A DNA stretch of 64,000 nucleotides from Oceanispirochaeta sp. (GTDB taxonomy: Bacteria; Spirochaetota; Spirochaetia; DSM-2461). A program made the position numbers and the translations under genes. The stretch lies in assembly GCA_963663385.2 (NCBI GenBank), contig CAXXXD010000004.1:128001-192000 (forward strand), read 5' to 3'. The notes below the pieces were generated by a model. It saw nothing but the letters and a program-made list of their open reading frames with translations, was not told the origin of the DNA and did no database searches. Shown piece by piece: positions 44,967-51,904 of the stretch. Within the stretch, counting starts at the first letter, position 1, and each line of letters begins with the position of its first letter.

Positions 44967-46373
44967 CTATAATTCTCCGGCAGCTGTAGCCGTCTGTCCT
45001 GCAATCCTGCCGAATACGATACAGCTGGTTACAGCACAGCTTCCCAGACGGCAGGCTCCATGAACCCCGCCTGTTATCTCTCCTGCGGCATAGAGCCCCG
45101 GAATGGCTTTCTGATTCAGGTCCAGAACACGGGCAGAGGTATCGATATGCACTCCTCCCATTGTATAGTGAACCTTGGGCCATACCCTCATGGCATAGTA
45201 GGGGAGTGTCTGAATGGGGAGGGCGTCATCGGGCATTTTTCTTCCAAAACGGTCCTTTATTTTCGATCCAGTAATATTATTGAACTCTGATAGGGTTGCC
45301 GCGAGCCCTTGCAGGGGAATACCGTATTCTCCTGCAAGGGTTTCAAGGGTGTTGAAGGTTTTGACAACCCCCTTGCTGACGGCCCTGCTGATATCCCATC
45401 CCGTATGCCTTACGGCAGCTTCATCACTGATGCAGAGGCAGGGCTTTCCCGCAGCAAGGATGGCATCCGAGAGGATCTTCCGGTCCGACTGTTCATTGAT
45501 AAAACGCTCCCCCGTTTCCGGATGGATTAGTATGCCGTAGATAAATCCGGTATAGTCCGTAAAAAGCGGACCGTGCCCCATCCCTTTTTCATCCGGTGAC
45601 GCCCAGGGTCCAAGCTGTATATGGGACAGCTGTACAGGCGCAGCTCCCTTTCTCATGGCTTCTTTTAACAGTCCGGCCGTGGCAAAGGGCTTGTTGGTTG
45701 TATCGATCTCTCTGTTCAACCGGGGATCCTGGACCATCCGGAAAGGGATATCCGCTCCAAACCCACCTCCTGCCAGGATAACTCCTTTTCCAGCTTCAAT
45801 CCGGAACGTCTCGGTACCCCTGTCCTCTTTAAAGTTATAGGAGGATGAAACGAGAACGCCGCTAATTCGGCCTTTCTCAAGGATCAGTTCTTTAACGCAG
45901 TGACCGTATTCTACAGTTACTTTCAGTTCTTTCAGTCTGTTCAGCATGGGTTTTATAATGGTCGCCCCTGTCACCCCGGCGGCTCCGTGACTGCGGGCTG
46001 TACTGTGACCGCCGAACAGGTCCACCCTGTCCATAAACTCAACACCGAGATCTTCTGTCAGCCAGAGGTAGGCTTCCCCGGCATGGTCTGTCAGTGTTCT
46101 GACCAGTTCCGGATGATTCAGTCCAAGGCCGGCTTTCATCATATCCCGGTAAAACAGGTCGGCCGAATCCTCAATCCCGTGCCTTTTCTGCAGGGGACTC
46201 TCCGCTACAGCCATACCCCCGTCGCTTATAATGGAGTTTCCACCGGCAGCTTTCATCTTTTCCAGAACCAGTACGGAGGCCCCGGCAGTTGCCGCTTCGA
46301 TAGCAGCGGCCAGACCGGCAAACCCTGTTCCCACAACAATAATGTCATAGCTTTTATTAATCATGGACTCCAT
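44967..46373 (-). CDS. Cytoplasmic flavocytochrome c-type (fumarate-reductase-like) FAD flavoprotein
   Basis: VGTGFAG, GGNS, FGGHS, HIQLGPW, KVHYTMGG, GACRLGS; no signal peptide, no CxxCH. Confidence 0.85.
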   Translation of the reverse strand: MESMINKSYDIIVVGTGFAGLAAAIEAATAGASVLVLEKMKAAGGNSIISDGGMAVAESPLQKRHGIEDSADLFYRDMMKAGLGLNHPELVRTLTDHAGEAYLWLTEDLGVEFMDRVDLFGGHSTARSHGAAGVTGATIIKPMLNRLKELKVTVEYGHCVKELILEKGRISGVLVSSSYNFKEDRGTETFRIEAGKGVILAGGGFGADIPFRMVQDPRLNREIDTTNKPFATAGLLKEAMRKGAAPVQLSHIQLGPWASPDEKGMGHGPLFTDYTGFIYGILIHPETGERFINEQSDRKILSDAILAAGKPCLCISDEAAVRHTGWDISRAVSKGVVKTFNTLETLAGEYGIPLQGLAATLSEFNNITGSKIKDRFGRKMPDDALPIQTLPYYAMRVWPKVHYTMGGVHIDTSARVLDLNQKAIPGLYAAGEITGGVHGACRLGSCAVTSCIVFGRIAGQTATAAGEL

Positions 46374-46414
46374 TATAGCCCCGGATTGTGTTTGGGGGAT
46401 ACCGGTTTAACCGG

Positions 46415-47026
46415 TTATTCCCGTATCAGGGGCACAAAGGAAAAACCGTAAAACTCCTCTTTCACAATCCCCTGTCCGGTCCGGTTGAATTTCCAGATGG
46501 AATGGTCCACCGGAATGACAAGTCTTCCACCGGGATTCAGCTGTTCTATCAGTTCTTCGGGGAAACAGGGGGCTGCGGCGGAAACAAGGATCCGGTCATA
46601 TACTGTTCCGGGATTGCCCAGGGCCGTTCCAGCCCGGGTAATCCGGGCCCACGGGAAGGAGTACTGTCTGAGGTTGCTGCTCCCGAATTCCACCAGTTCC
46701 GGACATCTCTCCAGTCCCAGTACAGTTCCGTCCGGACCGGTCAGTTTCGCCAGAAGAGCGGTCGTCCATCCCGATCCGGAACCGATGTCCAGAACTGCCT
46801 GACCGGGCAGGACATTCAGCAGATCCAGCATAAATGCCACTGTAAAGGGCTGGCTTATGGTCTGCCCGAACCCGATGGGCAGAGGGCCGTCGAAGTATGC
46901 CGCTACAGCATATTCGGGAAGGATGAAATCTGCCCGGTCTACTTCCCGTATGGCCTCTGCCACGGCCGGGTTTTCCAGAACCTGCCGGTCTTTCAGATAG
47001 ATAACGAGTTTTTCCAGGGATGTCAT
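46415..47026 (-). CDS. pcm: Protein-L-isoaspartate O-methyltransferase
   Basis: PLPIGFGQTISQP, LDIGSGSGW, YDRILVSAA, GGRLVIPV, FVPL. Confidence 0.92.
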   Translation of the reverse strand: MTSLEKLVIYLKDRQVLENPAVAEAIREVDRADFILPEYAVAAYFDGPLPIGFGQTISQPFTVAFMLDLLNVLPGQAVLDIGSGSGWTTALLAKLTGPDGTVLGLERCPELVEFGSSNLRQYSFPWARITRAGTALGNPGTVYDRILVSAAAPCFPEELIEQLNPGGRLVIPVDHSIWKFNRTGQGIVKEEFYGFSFVPLIRE

Positions 47027-47124
47027 ACAGTCTGTCCCCCTGCTTTTAAATCTAGTAGAGTTTCGTATCCCTGTCTAATAATCCCGGATTATTCAGAAGG
47101 TTCCATAACATCCCTGCAATTGCA

Positions 47125-48720
47125 TTATTTATTGTCTGCTATAATGGTTTCTCCGGCCAGTTTACCGAATACGGTAATATCAGTCAGAGCATTACCGCCC
47201 AGACGATTGGAGCCGTGAATACCGCCGACAATCTCTCCGGCCGCATAAAGACCGGGGATGACACTGCCTTCAGTACTCAGAACCCGGGTTTCTGTATCGA
47301 TAGAAAGACCGCCCATGGTATGATGAACCGCGGGGACAACTTTCTGGATGTAGAAAGGCCCGGTTTTAATTTCAGCCATTTTAGCGTTTCTGTTGAACTC
47401 TTTATCGGCTACCTTGGTGTCGGTACCGTTGTTCAGGTAATCGGCGGCGTAGCTGTTGTAGTCGGCTATTGTCTTAGCCAGACCTGCTTTGTCTATTCCA
47501 AAGAAATCCGCCGCGTCATCCAGAGTTTCCGCTTCGATCAGAACCTTGTCATCCATCAGCATCCGGTACTCTTTCCCATAAATCTCCAGAGTCCTGGCCT
47601 CATCCAGGATACTTTTATCCCATACCATGTATCCGTAGCTATCGCTCTGAGCCAGGATCATTTTGGAAACAACATCTCTCCGGTCATTCTCGTTTACGAA
47701 TCTTTTACCTTCAATGTTTACCATGGGAGCCCCGTACATCCTGGTGTCGGCTACAAAGGCAATCTTACCGGTAGTGGGGAAACAGAAGGGGTAGGTCTGG
47801 ATGTATTCCATATGAGTTGTTCCGGCTCCGATCTCTTCTGCCATAAGGATACCGCTTCCCAGATGACCGGGCGCATTGGTGGTTTTAACCCCTTCGCCAA
47901 GATCGTCTCTGTATTTCAGTCTCATATCCGCATTTCCGGCAAAACCGCCGGATGCCAGGACTATACCGTACCCTGCGTTAAATGTCAGCTCCTGACCGGA
48001 TCTGTTTTTCGCTTTTACACCGGTAACACGCCCGTCCGTATCGGTAATCAGAGAAGTAGCCTGCGTATTGACAATGACTTTTACACCCAGTTCATTGGCC
48101 TTCTCATACATCTTGTAGATCATCTGGGAACCTACTCCGCCCTTGACCACCAGGGCGCGGGCTACAGTATGGCCCCCGAAGTGTTTCTGGAAATCATCCA
48201 TAATTTCCACTTCTACAAAGTCTCTGAGCCATTCGGCAGTGGGAAGAGCCCGGTTAACCAGAACGTTTACCAGAGGTACGATACCCTTGTAGTCTCCGCC
48301 CTTCAGTGTATCTTCCTTGTAGAGTTCCCTGCTGTCTTCAATGCCCTGGGCTTTCTGTACCCAGTTTTCAGGAATGTCAAACCCTGCACCGGAGAGAGCG
48401 GTATTACCGCCGACCTTACTTTCCTGTTCCAGTATAACGACACTGGCTCCGGCGGATGCCGCAGAGACAGCTGCGGAAAAACCACCGCCGCCGGCGCCGA
48501 TAACGACTACATCAAAGCTCTGCTCTGTTTCTTTTTCGGCCTTGGGGTCGATTACTGGCAGTTTATACAGACCGGATTCATCAATGGCAGCTGATGCCTG
48601 GGAAGTGGAATCTACCGCTCCCGCTGTTTTCTCTTCGTTTGATTCCTGTGTTCTGGGGGCACATCCGGCAAACAGCAGAGCCGCCAGTACGGTGTACAGT
48701 ATCAATTTGAATCTTTTCAT
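47125..48720 (-). CDS. Lipoprotein fumarate-reductase-like FAD flavoprotein (enoate reductase candidate)
   Basis: Lipobox LLFAGC; GAGGGG, FGGHT, IQTYP, VHHTMGG, GSNRLGGNA; no heme motif. Confidence 0.85.
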   Translation of the reverse strand: MKRFKLILYTVLAALLFAGCAPRTQESNEEKTAGAVDSTSQASAAIDESGLYKLPVIDPKAEKETEQSFDVVVIGAGGGGFSAAVSAASAGASVVILEQESKVGGNTALSGAGFDIPENWVQKAQGIEDSRELYKEDTLKGGDYKGIVPLVNVLVNRALPTAEWLRDFVEVEIMDDFQKHFGGHTVARALVVKGGVGSQMIYKMYEKANELGVKVIVNTQATSLITDTDGRVTGVKAKNRSGQELTFNAGYGIVLASGGFAGNADMRLKYRDDLGEGVKTTNAPGHLGSGILMAEEIGAGTTHMEYIQTYPFCFPTTGKIAFVADTRMYGAPMVNIEGKRFVNENDRRDVVSKMILAQSDSYGYMVWDKSILDEARTLEIYGKEYRMLMDDKVLIEAETLDDAADFFGIDKAGLAKTIADYNSYAADYLNNGTDTKVADKEFNRNAKMAEIKTGPFYIQKVVPAVHHTMGGLSIDTETRVLSTEGSVIPGLYAAGEIVGGIHGSNRLGGNALTDITVFGKLAGETIIADNK

Positions 48721-48839
48721 TGTTTGATTTACTCCTTTTCAGGTAAAAAATATTGAACAACATTCCTGATTTATGAATTGCAGAAATAGTCCTTTCTCCG
48801 TTTTGTCTGCCAAAAATACAAATGAAGTACATTCTGATT

Positions 48840-48862
48840 TAAATAGACGAATAGTCTATTTA
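48840..48862. promoter_or_regulatory. Palindromic TetR (AcuR/NemR-like) operator, copy 1
   Basis: TAAATAGAC-gaata-GTCTATTTA between the divergent flavoprotein and acuR genes. Confidence 0.75.
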
Positions 48863-48942
48863 TTTGGCAATGGATCTACTATATACTGTCCGACAGAGTC
48901 ACTGTCAATATATTTAGTGAAAAAATTATCGATAAAGGTCAT

Positions 48943-49599
48943 ATGGATACGAATCAGAATACACCAAAGAGAAAGAGAGGCCGGCCTCCCAAGGATAAAC
49001 AGGGATACAATGAAACAAGGGAGGCTCTTATCCTCGCCGGGCTGGAATCCCTTACAGAGAAAGGGTTTGTCTCATCCAGCATTGATGAAGTGCTGAAGAA
49101 GGTATCCATTCCGAAAGGCTCGTATTATCATTACTTTCCCAGCAAGGAAGAATTCGGCAAGGAACTGATGGAAAGGTATATTTCCTATTTTGCCAATAAG
49201 CTTAGAAAGCATCTGGAGGATGAATCCCTTTCTCCCCTGGAGCGTCTGGAGTCCTTTGTCTGCAATGCAGCACGTGGAATGGAGCGTTATAACTTCAAAC
49301 GGGGATGCCTGATCGGGAACCTGGGACAGGAGATGAGCGTTATTCCGGAGAGTTTCCGGGACAGGCTCAAAGAGGGGTTTGATCTCTGGCAGGATATTGT
49401 GGCCCGGTGTCTGGAAGAAGCAAAACAGGATGGCAGAATCCATTCCGGAGCAGACTGCAGGAAGCTGGCCGAGATATTCTGGACAGGTTGGGAAGGCGCT
49501 GTGATGAGAGCAAAGATAGATCAGAGCAAAGAACCTTTATTTCAGTTTCATCGTTTTTTTCTGAATTGTATTCTGAATAATAGTGTCCCTTTTACCTAG
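48943..49599 (+). CDS. acuR: TetR-family acrylate utilisation regulator
   Basis: RGRPPK, LTEKGF, PKGSYYHYF, RGCLIGNLGQE, FWTGWEGAVMRAK; adjacent to acuI. Confidence 0.8.
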   Translation: MDTNQNTPKRKRGRPPKDKQGYNETREALILAGLESLTEKGFVSSSIDEVLKKVSIPKGSYYHYFPSKEEFGKELMERYISYFANKLRKHLEDESLSPLERLESFVCNAARGMERYNFKRGCLIGNLGQEMSVIPESFRDRLKEGFDLWQDIVARCLEEAKQDGRIHSGADCRKLAEIFWTGWEGAVMRAKIDQSKEPLFQFHRFFLNCILNNSVPFT

Positions 49600-49719
49600 A
49601 GATGCTCTCTAAAGATTTGTTCTGAAGCCGCTACCGGAACCATACTCATATTCTGTAAAATAGTACGGAGCATTGCATTCTATTGATAATTCTAAATGTG
49701 AACTGTCTTGTTATTGATT

Positions 49720-49743
49720 TAAATAGACGATTAGTCTAATTTA
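49720..49743. promoter_or_regulatory. Palindromic TetR operator, copy 2 (upstream of acuI)
   Basis: TAAATAGACGATTAGTCTAATTTA, nearly identical to copy 1 including flanks (TGATT...TATTTG). Confidence 0.75.
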
Positions 49744-49838
49744 TTTGAATACGGGATAGAAAACATAAAAACGCAGAAAAAATGCTCGGCGAAATAGCTG
49801 AACTGAGCGAAATCATAACTGTTAATCAGGGAGAAAAC

Positions 49839-50819
49839 ATGTTTAAGGGAATACTTATCGAGAAAGACGGGGATCATTATTGTGCAGCCCTTAAAGATAT
49901 TGATGAAGCCGGGCTTCCTGAAGGGGATGTTACGGTCAAAGTGGAGTATTCAACCCTGAATTACAAGGATGCCCTGGCTGTTACCGGCAGGGGCCGGGTT
50001 ATACGGGATTTCCCCATGATTCCCGGTATTGATATGGCGGGAGAGGTTTTATCATCCAGCAATCCCGAATTTCAGGCGGGGGATAAGGTTCTTCTAAACG
50101 GATGGGGAGTTGGTGAGAAACATTGGGGAGGGCTGGCGGAAAAGGCCCGGGTTAAGGGGAAATGGCTGATTCCCCTTCCTTCCGGACTCTCTCCGGAAAA
50201 AGCCATGACCATCGGTACAGCCGGTTATACGGCTATGCTCTGTATTCTCGCTTTGGAGGAGAACGGCGTAACCCCGGACAACGGGGAGATACTCGTGACC
50301 GGGGCTACCGGAGGTGTGGGAAGTTTTGCTATATCCCTGCTGGCAAAAGCAGGTTTCAAAGTAGTTGCCATGACCGGAAAGAGGGATGCGGAATCCTATC
50401 TGAAAGAACTGGGCGCTGCCGAAGTGATTGACCGTGCGGAATACTCCGAACCGGGAAGACCTCTGGAGCATGAACGCTGGGCCGGTGTTGTTGATGTGGC
50501 CGGCGGTTATATTCTGGCCAATGCCTGCGCCGCTGTAAAATACGGCGGTACGGTAACAGCCTGTGGCCTGGCGGGAAGCATGGATCTGCCGGCAACTGTT
50601 GCTCCCTTTATTCTGCGGGGCGTAACTCTGGCTGGAATTGACAGCGTTATGTGTCCTGTGGAAAGAAGAAAAAAAGCCTGGTCACGCCTGGCGCTGGAAA
50701 CGGAGGACCTGGAATTCGATTTGATTGCCCGGGAGATAAGACTTGAGGATGTGCCGGATGTCTCCCGTGATCTGCTGGATGGGAAGATCACAGGAAGGCG
50801 GCTGGTGCGGATCGCTTAA
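49839..50819 (+). CDS. acuI: Acryloyl-CoA reductase (YhdH/AcuI, MDR family)
   Basis: YSTLNYKDAL, GWGVGEKHWGGLA, IGTAGYTAM, TGATGGVGS, PFILRGV..GIDSV. Confidence 0.88.
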   Translation: MFKGILIEKDGDHYCAALKDIDEAGLPEGDVTVKVEYSTLNYKDALAVTGRGRVIRDFPMIPGIDMAGEVLSSSNPEFQAGDKVLLNGWGVGEKHWGGLAEKARVKGKWLIPLPSGLSPEKAMTIGTAGYTAMLCILALEENGVTPDNGEILVTGATGGVGSFAISLLAKAGFKVVAMTGKRDAESYLKELGAAEVIDRAEYSEPGRPLEHERWAGVVDVAGGYILANACAAVKYGGTVTACGLAGSMDLPATVAPFILRGVTLAGIDSVMCPVERRKKAWSRLALETEDLEFDLIAREIRLEDVPDVSRDLLDGKITGRRLVRIA

Positions 50820-51904
50820 ACAATCAAACCAAGTTCAGCCAGGGCATCTGTCATCTCCTGTTTTGGAGAGTCAGATACCGGCAGTTTTGTTCCTGTAATT
50901 TTTTCGGTCAGATCAATATAGAGCCGGCTGACTTCCATCATCTGTTCATCCTTCAGGCGGAAGGTCTCGGCAAGAGCTTTCCGTTCATCCATCCGGTTTT
51001 TGTTCAGCAGGACATCTTTGTCGGGAACACTGGCCTGGAGCATTTCCCGGAAGAACTCTTTGGAATCCTCCCGGATTTCCCCTTTGTCATAAAGGGCTTT
51101 GTCCCAGTAACGGGAGGAATCGGGGGTGCCGATCTCATCTATATAGATCATCCTGGCTCTATCTCCCTCTCCGCTGAAACCGAACTCAAACTTGGTGTCT
51201 ACAAATACTTTACCGATTTTTTCCAGCTCCCGGGATATCAGGCTGAATCCTTGGGAGAGCAGTTTTTCATAAGTCGTCACATCTTCCGCATTACGGAAGT
51301 TAAAGGCCTGGAGATTACCAAGAATCTGATCGCGGGTGATATTTACATCATCGATTTCGGGGATCCCTTCCACTCCGCTGATAATACCCTTTGTGGAGGG
51401 AGTGAGTAGAAGCTTGTCCAGTTTCTGATTCTTTTTTAAACCCTCCGGCAGGGTGATACCGCAGATATCCCGGTCTCCCTTCTCATAGGAACGCCACATG
51501 CTGCCTGTTATATACTGCCGGGCGATGGCTTCCACCATGACAGGCCGGGCTTTGCGGACAATCCAGACCAGGGGATGGGGATTATCTACAATATGATTCC
51601 CTGCCAGGCCTTCTTCTTCAAATCGGGTAAACCAGTAACGGGCTATGGTATTGAGAGCGGCGCCTTTGCCCGGAATCCCCTTTAATCCCCCCTCGCTCTG
51701 CCAGACGCATTCATAAGCGGAAATCCTGTCGCTGATGATCATAACCGCCAGTTCTTCATTTTCAAGGCCATAGCGACTGCACAGGCGCTTGTTGTCCTCA
51801 TCCGTCAGCCAGTATACAGACCGGACTTTCCCTGAATGGATCTTTCCTGCATGTCTGATGGGCAGGTCATCTGTATTCACCAGCGCTTTGTCTGTTATTG
51901 CCAT
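50816..51904 (-). CDS. purC: SAICAR synthase, long (Vibrio-type) form
   Basis: HSGKVRSVY, SDRISA, YITGSMWR, TPSTK, DTKFEFG, DEIGTPDSSR. Confidence 0.92.
   Translation of the reverse strand: MAITDKALVNTDDLPIRHAGKIHSGKVRSVYWLTDEDNKRLCSRYGLENEELAVMIISDRISAYECVWQSEGGLKGIPGKGAALNTIARYWFTRFEEEGLAGNHIVDNPHPLVWIVRKARPVMVEAIARQYITGSMWRSYEKGDRDICGITLPEGLKKNQKLDKLLLTPSTKGIISGVEGIPEIDDVNITRDQILGNLQAFNFRNAEDVTTYEKLLSQGFSLISRELEKIGKVFVDTKFEFGFSGEGDRARMIYIDEIGTPDSSRYWDKALYDKGEIREDSKEFFREMLQASVPDKDVLLNKNRMDERKALAETFRLKDEQMMEVSRLYIDLTEKITGTKLPVSDSPKQEMTDALAELGLIV

Follow-up and report, generated by a model that had tools for sequence, protein, structure and literature searches.

A 64,000-nucleotide (nt) window from the 5.3 Mb genome of an Oceanispirochaeta species (G000) carries, between positions 47125 and 50819, a leftward gene for a flavin reductase, the divergently oriented regulator gene acuR and, beyond it, acuI, with two copies of a short repeat in the intervening regions (Table 1). 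The reductase is a flavocytochrome-c-family protein that uses flavin adenine dinucleotide (FAD) and bears a lipobox; its immediate neighbors are pcm and acuR. The AcuR and AcuI assignments of the original prediction, made from the sequence of this stretch, are supported, as both proteins score above their NCBIfam cut-offs, and the AcuR proteins of relatives score 285-291 bits against NF051457. At the same numbering 12 of the 13 pocket residues of Halomonas AcuR are identical in the window protein, the remaining one, His116, being Tyr. The cassette is real, as the operator sequence, gene identities, arrangement, pocket residues and linker motif described below establish. Acrylate, which is released from the algal osmolyte dimethylsulfoniopropionate (DMSP), is toxic and can also be used as an electron acceptor in anoxic sediments, and a three-gene acrylate-response cassette, taken as a whole explanation of the locus, stands in our estimation at an even chance of being correct.

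Table 1. Features of the reductase-acuR-acuI locus (window coordinates; strand as +, - or. where none applies).
Feature	Position	Strand	Evidence and remarks
Lipoprotein FAD-dependent 2-enoate reductase, 531 aa	47125-48720	-	TIGR01813, 436 bits (cut-off 285); UrdA-related clade
DSTSQAS, residues 37-43, ApbE flavinylation-like motif	48592-48612	-	Ser43 is the predicted flavin mononucleotide (FMN) acceptor
Signal peptide with lipobox Cys20	48661-48720	-	Cys in 25/26 aligned orthologs
Repeat copy 1	48835-48861	.	Contains the operator core TAGAC-GAATA-GTCTA (48844-48858), with unchanged arms in 4 genomes
Decayed second operator position	48864-48878	.	Matrix score -0.6; aligns with intact second operator of G008
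Putative leftward reductase promoter	48880-48908	-	-35 TTGACA 48908-48903, 17 nt, -10-like TATATA 48885-48880
acuR, TetR-family acrylate-responsive regulator	48943-49599	+	NF051457, 293 bits (cut-off 247)
Repeat copy 2, acuI promoter-operator	49714-49742	+	TTGATT-17 nt-TAATTT with core 49724-49738 inside the spacer; arranged like the R. sphaeroides promoter studied by mutagenesis
acuI, acryloyl-CoA reductase	49839-50819	+	NF051456, 528 bits (cut-off 440); start is the ATG conserved in relatives

The repeat is present at both sites, as had been claimed, with 25 of 27 positions identical (48835-48861 compared with 49715-49741) and the copies spaced by 880 nt. The next-best match elsewhere in the genome has 7 mismatches, and under a mononucleotide model the chance of such a pair within 1 kb anywhere in the window is ~3e-5; the bare TAGAC-N5-GTCTA, with its 10 fixed bases, is not over-represented (2 seen, 5.7 expected). 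An operator matrix derived from 7 sites scores the two window sites at 30.4 and 29.6, values that are partly circular because both sites belong to the training set, and the next site at 14.2. With no third strong site, a wider AcuR regulon in G000 was rejected. Because the repeat unit contains a rightward -35-like hexamer (TTGATT/CTGATT) we describe it as a promoter-plus-operator module, and in copy 2 the TTGATT and the operator arms are unchanged in 3 of 3 genomes.

The identity of the repeat core as an AcuR operator, TAGAC-N5-GTCTA, is supported by comparison with characterized systems. In the account of PMC3017554 the R. sphaeroides operator, TAATAGAC-n6-GTCTATTA, lies between TTGATT and TATTAT and its mutation leads to constitutive expression, and according to PMC13104084 the Halomonas AcuR site is TATAGA-N7-TCTATA, equivalent to N5 spacing, with a protein that binds both acrylate and DMSP. 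We also examined the acuR loci of 7 of the 169 plasmid-collection records with AcuR relatives (6 of the 7 annotated), allowing one mismatch in operator scoring. An operator precedes acuR in every one of these proteobacterial loci, with N5 in six and N6 in one, and in three of them a second is located between acuR and a downstream oxidoreductase, a weak fourth second-copy match that overlaps the end of acuR having been left out. The AcuR-type assignment proposed earlier is thus upheld; the spacing implied by the NemR site to which it had been likened (N6) is not, and a NemR-type operator was rejected since all 8 spirochaete sites seen have N5, which is also the common AcuR spacing.

Whether the reductase is under the control of AcuR was addressed by comparing genomes. 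In the genus sample (11 genomes) the reductase (84-86%) and acuR (75-78%) have close orthologs in the same three members, G000, G001 (an assembly that is 85% complete) and G008, and neither occurs at that level in the other eight; in all three the two genes are adjacent, with acuI, and the flanking genes differ. The class sample (400 genomes) yielded G963, from another spirochaete family (94% complete, 12% contaminated, with the pair on an 809 kb contig), which brings the divergent reductase-acuR pair to 4 genomes in 2 families. In G963 acuI is not adjacent and no AcuI passes the cut-off (best 302, cut-off 440 bits), and the sole perfect operator of the assembly sits between reductase and acuR. 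The phylum sample (401 genomes) contained no further reductase ortholog, with only one FMN_bind-type match of 46%.

All four intergenic regions retain an invariant CTGTCAA, which is TTGACA when read toward the reductase. The operator begins 21 nt past the leftward -10 in the window, and over the set this distance is 20-21 nt in G000 and G001, 1 nt in G963, and 1 and 21 nt in G008, where two perfect operators stand in tandem with a 20-nt period (L020:9837-9871). The window and G001 retain the promoter-distal operator only, the proximal one having decayed in both, and G963 has a proximal one only. The operator lies 84 nt from the start of acuR, with the leftward promoter between the two, as compared to ~10 nt in the proteobacterial loci. 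Metatranscriptome run X1, which is unstranded and may include DNA, provides contigs 97-100% identical to parts of the reductase gene and acuI, one of which bridges 48639-48849, from the start of the reductase into the operator, compatible with a long reductase leader that reaches it. X1 contigs are lacking over acuR, pcm and purC, and the second flavoprotein described below is touched by a 38-nt foreign piece only; we have not used these gaps as evidence.

From the conserved leftward promoter and from the reductase-acuR pair that persists in G963 without acuI, we consider it quite likely that AcuR regulates the reductase by repression. Hence the operator-linked reductase of the original prediction stands in terms of co-regulation, and the argument then given for it, the occurrence of two repeat copies, does not: this pattern occurs in 3 of the 7 proteobacterial cassettes, of which the 6 annotated ones all lack a divergent flavin reductase, is ordinary for acuR-acuI, and therefore on its own ties in no reductase. 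Other points also weigh against co-regulation. The four linked intergenic regions are homologous and therefore represent one origin, not four tests; the leftward -10 is imperfect and escaped a consensus promoter scan (10 sites, 6.2 expected, none at the proposed promoters); and G963 is appreciably contaminated. It could be argued that copy 1 autoregulates acuR only, with the reductase no more than a neighbor on a compact divergent promoter region and free of acrylate control. Such a picture would accommodate the operator before acuR in each proteobacterial locus with a second before an oxidoreductase in some, the decay of the promoter-proximal operator in the window and the Firmicute reductase orthologs that manage without AcuR. 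It does not sit well with an invariant -35 inserted between acuR and a distant operator, with G963, nor with a trio that is present or absent as a unit over the 11 genus genomes, and we regard it as improbable.

Turning to the enzyme, the reductase shows no Pfam FMN_bind (PF04205) match and no CxxCH, consistent with the earlier statement that heme and an FMN-binding domain are absent. The motifs HHTMGG, NRLGG, ADTR and IQTYP that had been singled out are all present. However, the Arg of ADTR was wrongly taken as proton donor; this residue, Arg327, aligns with UrdA Arg390 and Fcc3 Arg381 and is therefore a relay arginine, and the donor (UrdA Arg411, Fcc3 Arg402) aligns with Arg348 in NDRRD. UrdA is the best match both in a sequence search (6T85 at 449 bits vs 275 for FccA) and in Foldseek (6T86/6T85, 46-47% identity). 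The fumarate-reductase signature is absent, FccA His365, Thr377 and Glu378 being replaced by Tyr310, Val323 and Ala324. UrdA, ArdA, ARD and Mrd are absent from our trees, and their residues are quoted from paper text and from a printed PDB alignment. By that alignment and the numbering of PMC7921117 the equivalents of UrdA Tyr373 (Tyr310), Ala387 (Ala324), Asp388 (Asp325), Arg390 (Arg327) and Phe245 (Phe181) are kept, as is the triad Arg411 (Arg348), His520 (His466) and Arg560 (Arg506), and three positions are changed: Glu177 is Gly113, Phe243 is Lys179 and Phe391 is Met328.

These changes are shared by relatives. The best 28 of 120 listed homologs (54-95% identity) have no FMN_bind domain, and the 18 members of this group in our tree (the query and 17 homologs) form a single branch with support of 100/100. 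The full pocket signature is common to 23 of the 28, and the bulky Met328 and Phe312 are invariant. On sequence grounds the reductase thus belongs to a distinct clade that is nearest UrdA (~47% identity). The triplet at UrdA positions 177/243/388 in 124 UrdA-like sequences reads E-[FMYL]-D in 68, G-Q-N in 26 and G-K-D, as here, in 23. The account in PMC7921117 has Asp388 as the critical urocanate residue of UrdA, Glu177 as unconserved among gut UrdAs and Phe243 as able to turn in between the two acids, so that Lys179 may pair with Asp325 and neutralize the imidazole site; a Lys179-Asp325 pair that closes the distal pocket may be read from three lineages. The G-Q-N sequences (26 of the proteins numbered P0029-P0120, including Tissierella-type matches) form an UrdA-like sister group that may be another unrecognised substrate class currently named urocanate reductase. 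In run X7 a close relative differs from the window at 71 of ~1960 nt over 46021-47982, as opposed to 7 of ~2150 over acuI-purC, a contrast drawn from single low-depth contigs that suggests recombination in or near the reductase gene.

The linker that connects Cys20 to the FAD domain is variable and predicted to be disordered (residues 17-43 have a predicted local distance difference test score below 50), with the exception of D37-x-x-S40-Q41-A42-S43, a conserved motif that is the new element of this analysis. Over 26 aligned orthologs the D is found in 25, S/T in 22, and A and the final S/T in all 26, and the fifth position is Gln in 17 sequences, with Gly (5), Ser (3) and His (1) in the others. 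Of these linkers 21 show the pattern D-x-x-[ST]-x-A-[ST], as compared to 0.39 expected from shuffles (homologs are not independent); 2 of 160 lipoprotein-like open reading frames (ORFs) of G000 have it, and none of the 12 other short UrdA-like relatives in the top matches does. DSTSQAS fits the ApbE motif D-x-x-[S/T]-G-A-[S/T] except for Gly to Gln, and 2 of the 5 Gly-bearing orthologs are fully canonical. As reported in PMC12052999, a 7-residue tag of the ApbE type suffices and Gly to Ala leaves ~50% flavinylation; modification of unstructured extensions is described in PMC11334425, and PMC8238504 gives flavinylated fumarate and urocanate reductases as established. A DVTSGAS is present in the linker of P0471, a PRK06481-family fumarate reductase (1 of 32 short representatives). 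Listeria FrdA is reportedly modified in such a linker.

An apbE gene is present in 5 of the 6 ortholog-bearing genomes tested, G000 (C3), G008 and three Firmicutes, and was not found in the incomplete G001. At one Firmicute locus apbE and an Ndh-like gene lie within ~8 kb, and at another the reductase is followed immediately by NusG_II and Hpre_diP_synt_I genes, which we take to be flavin extracellular electron transfer genes. G000 has an NqrBCDEF-like cluster (C3:1596378-1600250, L144) ~6 kb from apbE, with no NqrA in the stretch read, a complete-looking Rnf cluster (C2:1437830-1442825) and a stand-alone FMN_bind protein. It must be weighed against flavinylation that the motif Gly is Gln in most orthologs, when even Ala halved the modification in the one study cited above. 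A search of the open-access literature found no report of the Gln variant (SQAS/SQAT/TQAT). On balance the motif is probably an ApbE flavinylation site that replaces the FMN-binding domain. The electron donor, given as unknown in the earlier work, can accordingly be narrowed to a probable flavinylated linker serine, behind which there are several candidate membrane donors.

A mechanism that would join these elements is as follows. AcuR would bind TAGAC-N5-GTCTA in the spacer of the acuI promoter and in the reductase-acuR intergenic region, where the operator would span overlapping face-to-face promoters, so that one site would probably control both acuR and the reductase. Acrylate or DMSP would alter binding, as is known for Rhodobacter and Halomonas AcuR. 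AcuI would clear acryloyl-CoA in the cytoplasm, the function of its family, and the reductase would be exported and lipid-anchored at Cys20. ApbE would, with reasonable probability, attach FMN to Ser43, and the tethered flavin would stand in for the FMN-binding domain of UrdA in relaying electrons to FAD from a membrane donor, be it the NqrBCDEF-like cluster, Rnf or the stand-alone FMN_bind protein. Following the conserved mechanism, FAD would supply the hydride and Arg348 the proton for reduction of a 2-enoate bound by Arg348, His466 and Arg506. With the two-acid imidazole site of UrdA remodelled and the distal pocket closed by the putative Lys179-Asp325 pair, a small enoate would be favored, and acrylate would be reduced extracytoplasmically to propionate, a reaction that would both detoxify it and provide an electron sink.

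We consider acrylate the most likely substrate, a choice in which our confidence is evenly divided. It is suggested by the linkage to acuI and to a regulator with an acrylate/DMSP pocket and by Tyr310/Val323, which resemble Trp311/Val324 of Mrd, an enzyme that according to PMC4427408 also reduces acrylate. Several observations count against it. The closest characterized enzyme is UrdA, with its critical Asp388 kept, and the pocket differs from those of both ArdA (Gly/Tyr) and ARD (Met/Thr). Three Firmicute orthologs, found among 401 genomes of their order (65-76% identity), share the pocket of the window reductase; there is no acuR, acuI or operator near any of the three loci and no AcuI above the cut-off in the three genomes. 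All three genomes have histidine ammonia-lyase (HAL), and one copy directly follows hutU/ftcd/hutI, with hutH ~17 kb upstream. The G963 reductase groups with unlinked Firmicute-type copies, and a single clade of the four acuR-linked reductases was rejected by an approximately unbiased (AU) test (p-AU 7e-5, LG+G4); linked and unlinked copies therefore probably share a substrate. G000 yielded no DMSP lyase of PF16867, so acrylate would have to come from outside (a search for DddY gave no match in 3 genomes and none in controls, and is thus uninformative). Finally, as bioRxiv 2023.03.04.531086 recounts, active-site signatures mispredicted V. ruber Crd, a cinnamate reductase.

The most serious competing explanation is that the enzyme has remained a reductase of urocanate or of a substituted urocanate, derived from amino-acid-fermenting Firmicutes and placed under AcuR control, either since AcuR also senses 3-substituted acrylates or as part of a general toxic-enoate response. 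Apart from UrdA being the top match by sequence and structure, with the residues listed above retained, and from the hut-adjacent and HAL-bearing Firmicutes, several orthologs are automatically named urocanate reductase, and the text of bioRxiv 2026.04.22.720169 includes a predicted N-methylurocanate reductase that also is without the Glu177 ligand. According to the same source, urocanate reductases typically have an acid at 177 and another at 388, whereas here there is Gly113 and a Lys179 in the lid. Moreover, the hut-adjacent copy is preceded by a terminator-like hairpin and by a TTGACA-17-TATAAT of its own (both recognized by eye), the other two Firmicute loci are not hut-linked, HAL was not found in any of the three spirochaetes tested (G000, G001 and G008), and AcuR has an acrylate-type pocket. 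We consider a urocanate-type substrate unlikely. Slightly less likely still is control by AcuR with a different 2-enoate that co-occurs with acrylate in anoxic sediment (crotonate, methacrylate, a hydroxycinnamate or an enoate whose distal anionic group is bound by a Lys179 that does not pair with Asp325), which the loss of a side chain at Gly113 could favor by widening the pocket, as could the signatures that hid the V. ruber enzyme and the specificity shifts described as repeated in this family (bioRxiv 2022.12.26.521950), against which stand the link to acuI, the conserved acrylate/DMSP pocket of the regulator and the bulky Met328 and Phe312.

Returning to acrylate, a stronger formulation would be that acrylate reduction evolved once more, independently, in this clade on the UrdA scaffold, with a Lys-Asp plug in the imidazole pocket and a bare, non-canonical SQAS flavinylation peptide that connects to the membrane; we put this forward tentatively. 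Named clade members are Marinisporobacter, Anaeromicrobium and Vallitalea, marine sediment anaerobes, and this habitat fits acrylate and also marine histidine derivatives. No report of a spirochaete acuI with an anaerobic acrylate reductase was found in the open-access literature. Family samples around two of the Firmicute genomes gave no additional orthologs, the ESM Atlas returned generic flavocytochrome c clusters only, and a metagenome scan with the clade alignment produced 79 loci of at most ~50% full-length identity among which no clade member was recognised, the patterns being too general and ORFs having been read in 3.

Several neighboring and related genes deserve mention. Two genes downstream of the reductase is a second FAD_binding_2 protein (44967-46373, -, 468 aa, no signal peptide). 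Where FccA has His365 this protein has Gly255, and a Tyr falls within one column of Thr377, a combination reminiscent of the ArdA signature. The gene has no operator in front of it; in G008 the ortholog is located ~750 kb away from the cassette, and G001 yielded none. We regard it as a separate acrylate-reductase candidate. Between the two flavoproteins lies the protein-L-isoaspartate methyltransferase gene pcm (46415-47026, -), which is not beside the cassette in G001, G008 or G963, and a purC of the Vibrio type (50816-51904, -, TIGR02735 above cut-off) overlaps the acuI stop by 4 nt. Three more flavin reductases are encoded in G000 (C3:284963-286867 and C3:189578-195146), one an FMN_bind lipoprotein with an unusual pocket in which Leu occupies the His365 position and two with His, the latter probably fumarate-type. 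A DUF554 gene immediately precedes one Firmicute ortholog, and there is one ~26 kb before a second ortholog (L114:7281-7997, L128:42-740).

The characterized acrylate reductases compared here are all proteobacterial, and an AcuR-linked, UrdA-derived lipoprotein would, if confirmed, widen the acrylate sink by a new lineage of enzymes and by new host phyla. It would also mean that the Tyr373/Asp388 rule by which imidazole-propionate producers are called can misfire. Were D-x-x-S-Q-A-S flavinylated, the ApbE motif would be wider than [S/T]GA[S/T], and domain-based surveys would miss such substrates. Should the tentative case for an independent acrylate reductase hold, free-living spirochaetes and sediment Firmicutes would join the acrylate respirers, and the automatic name urocanate reductase would be wrong for many of the genes of the clade that bear it.

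It is useful, finally, to place the cassette among known systems. The closest system-level analogue is that of S. woodyi, an acuI-regulator-ardAB-dddY cluster whose ArdA carries Gly/Tyr in place of FccA His365/Thr377 (bioRxiv 2024.02.11.579808); as there, an extracytoplasmic FAD_binding_2 reductase is clustered with acuI and a regulator, but the window enzyme is a Tyr/Val lipoprotein with no cytochrome or dddY nearby, whereas ArdA has a twin-arginine (Tat) signal and a tetraheme partner. The acuR-acuI operons of R. sphaeroides and Halomonas D47 share the regulator, the reductase gene, the operator half-sites and the TTGATT promoter layout, and differ in that acuR of the window possesses a leader that includes a ribosome-binding site, and in that a third, divergent gene joins the set. 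Relative to UrdA of S. oneidensis (PDB 6T85-6T88), likewise extracytoplasmic, the similarity of ~47% extends over the FAD and clamp domains; the three pocket substitutions, a 7-residue motif in place of the N-terminal FMN_bind domain and the linkage to acuR/acuI set the two apart. The NADH:acrylate oxidoreductase ARD of V. harveyi also has an FAD_binding_2 domain, with ApbE-dependent covalent FMN and induction by acrylate, and is, unlike the window protein, a cytoplasmic enzyme of three domains, OYE and FMN_bind among them, with a Met/Thr signature according to bioRxiv 2022.01.20.477176. Mrd of G. sulfurreducens AM-1 likewise combines an aromatic residue with Val at the His/Thr positions, again spaced by 13 residues, so that the Tyr/Val of our reductase is nearest to Mrd and UrdA, yet Mrd has Trp rather than Tyr, is exported by Tat and is fed by a tetraheme cytochrome c. 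The PRK06481-type lipoprotein fumarate reductases, presumably of the Listeria FrdA type, are a precedent for a lipoprotein (~505 aa) with a bare flavinylation motif in its linker and no FMN-binding domain, but at 32% identity, with a fumarate-type His/Glu pocket and the canonical Gly in the motif. In sum, the cassette would work like acuI-ardAB of S. woodyi, with a reductase that lies outside the ArdA, ARD and FccA groups and that carries part, and not all, of the residues by which UrdA is recognized.

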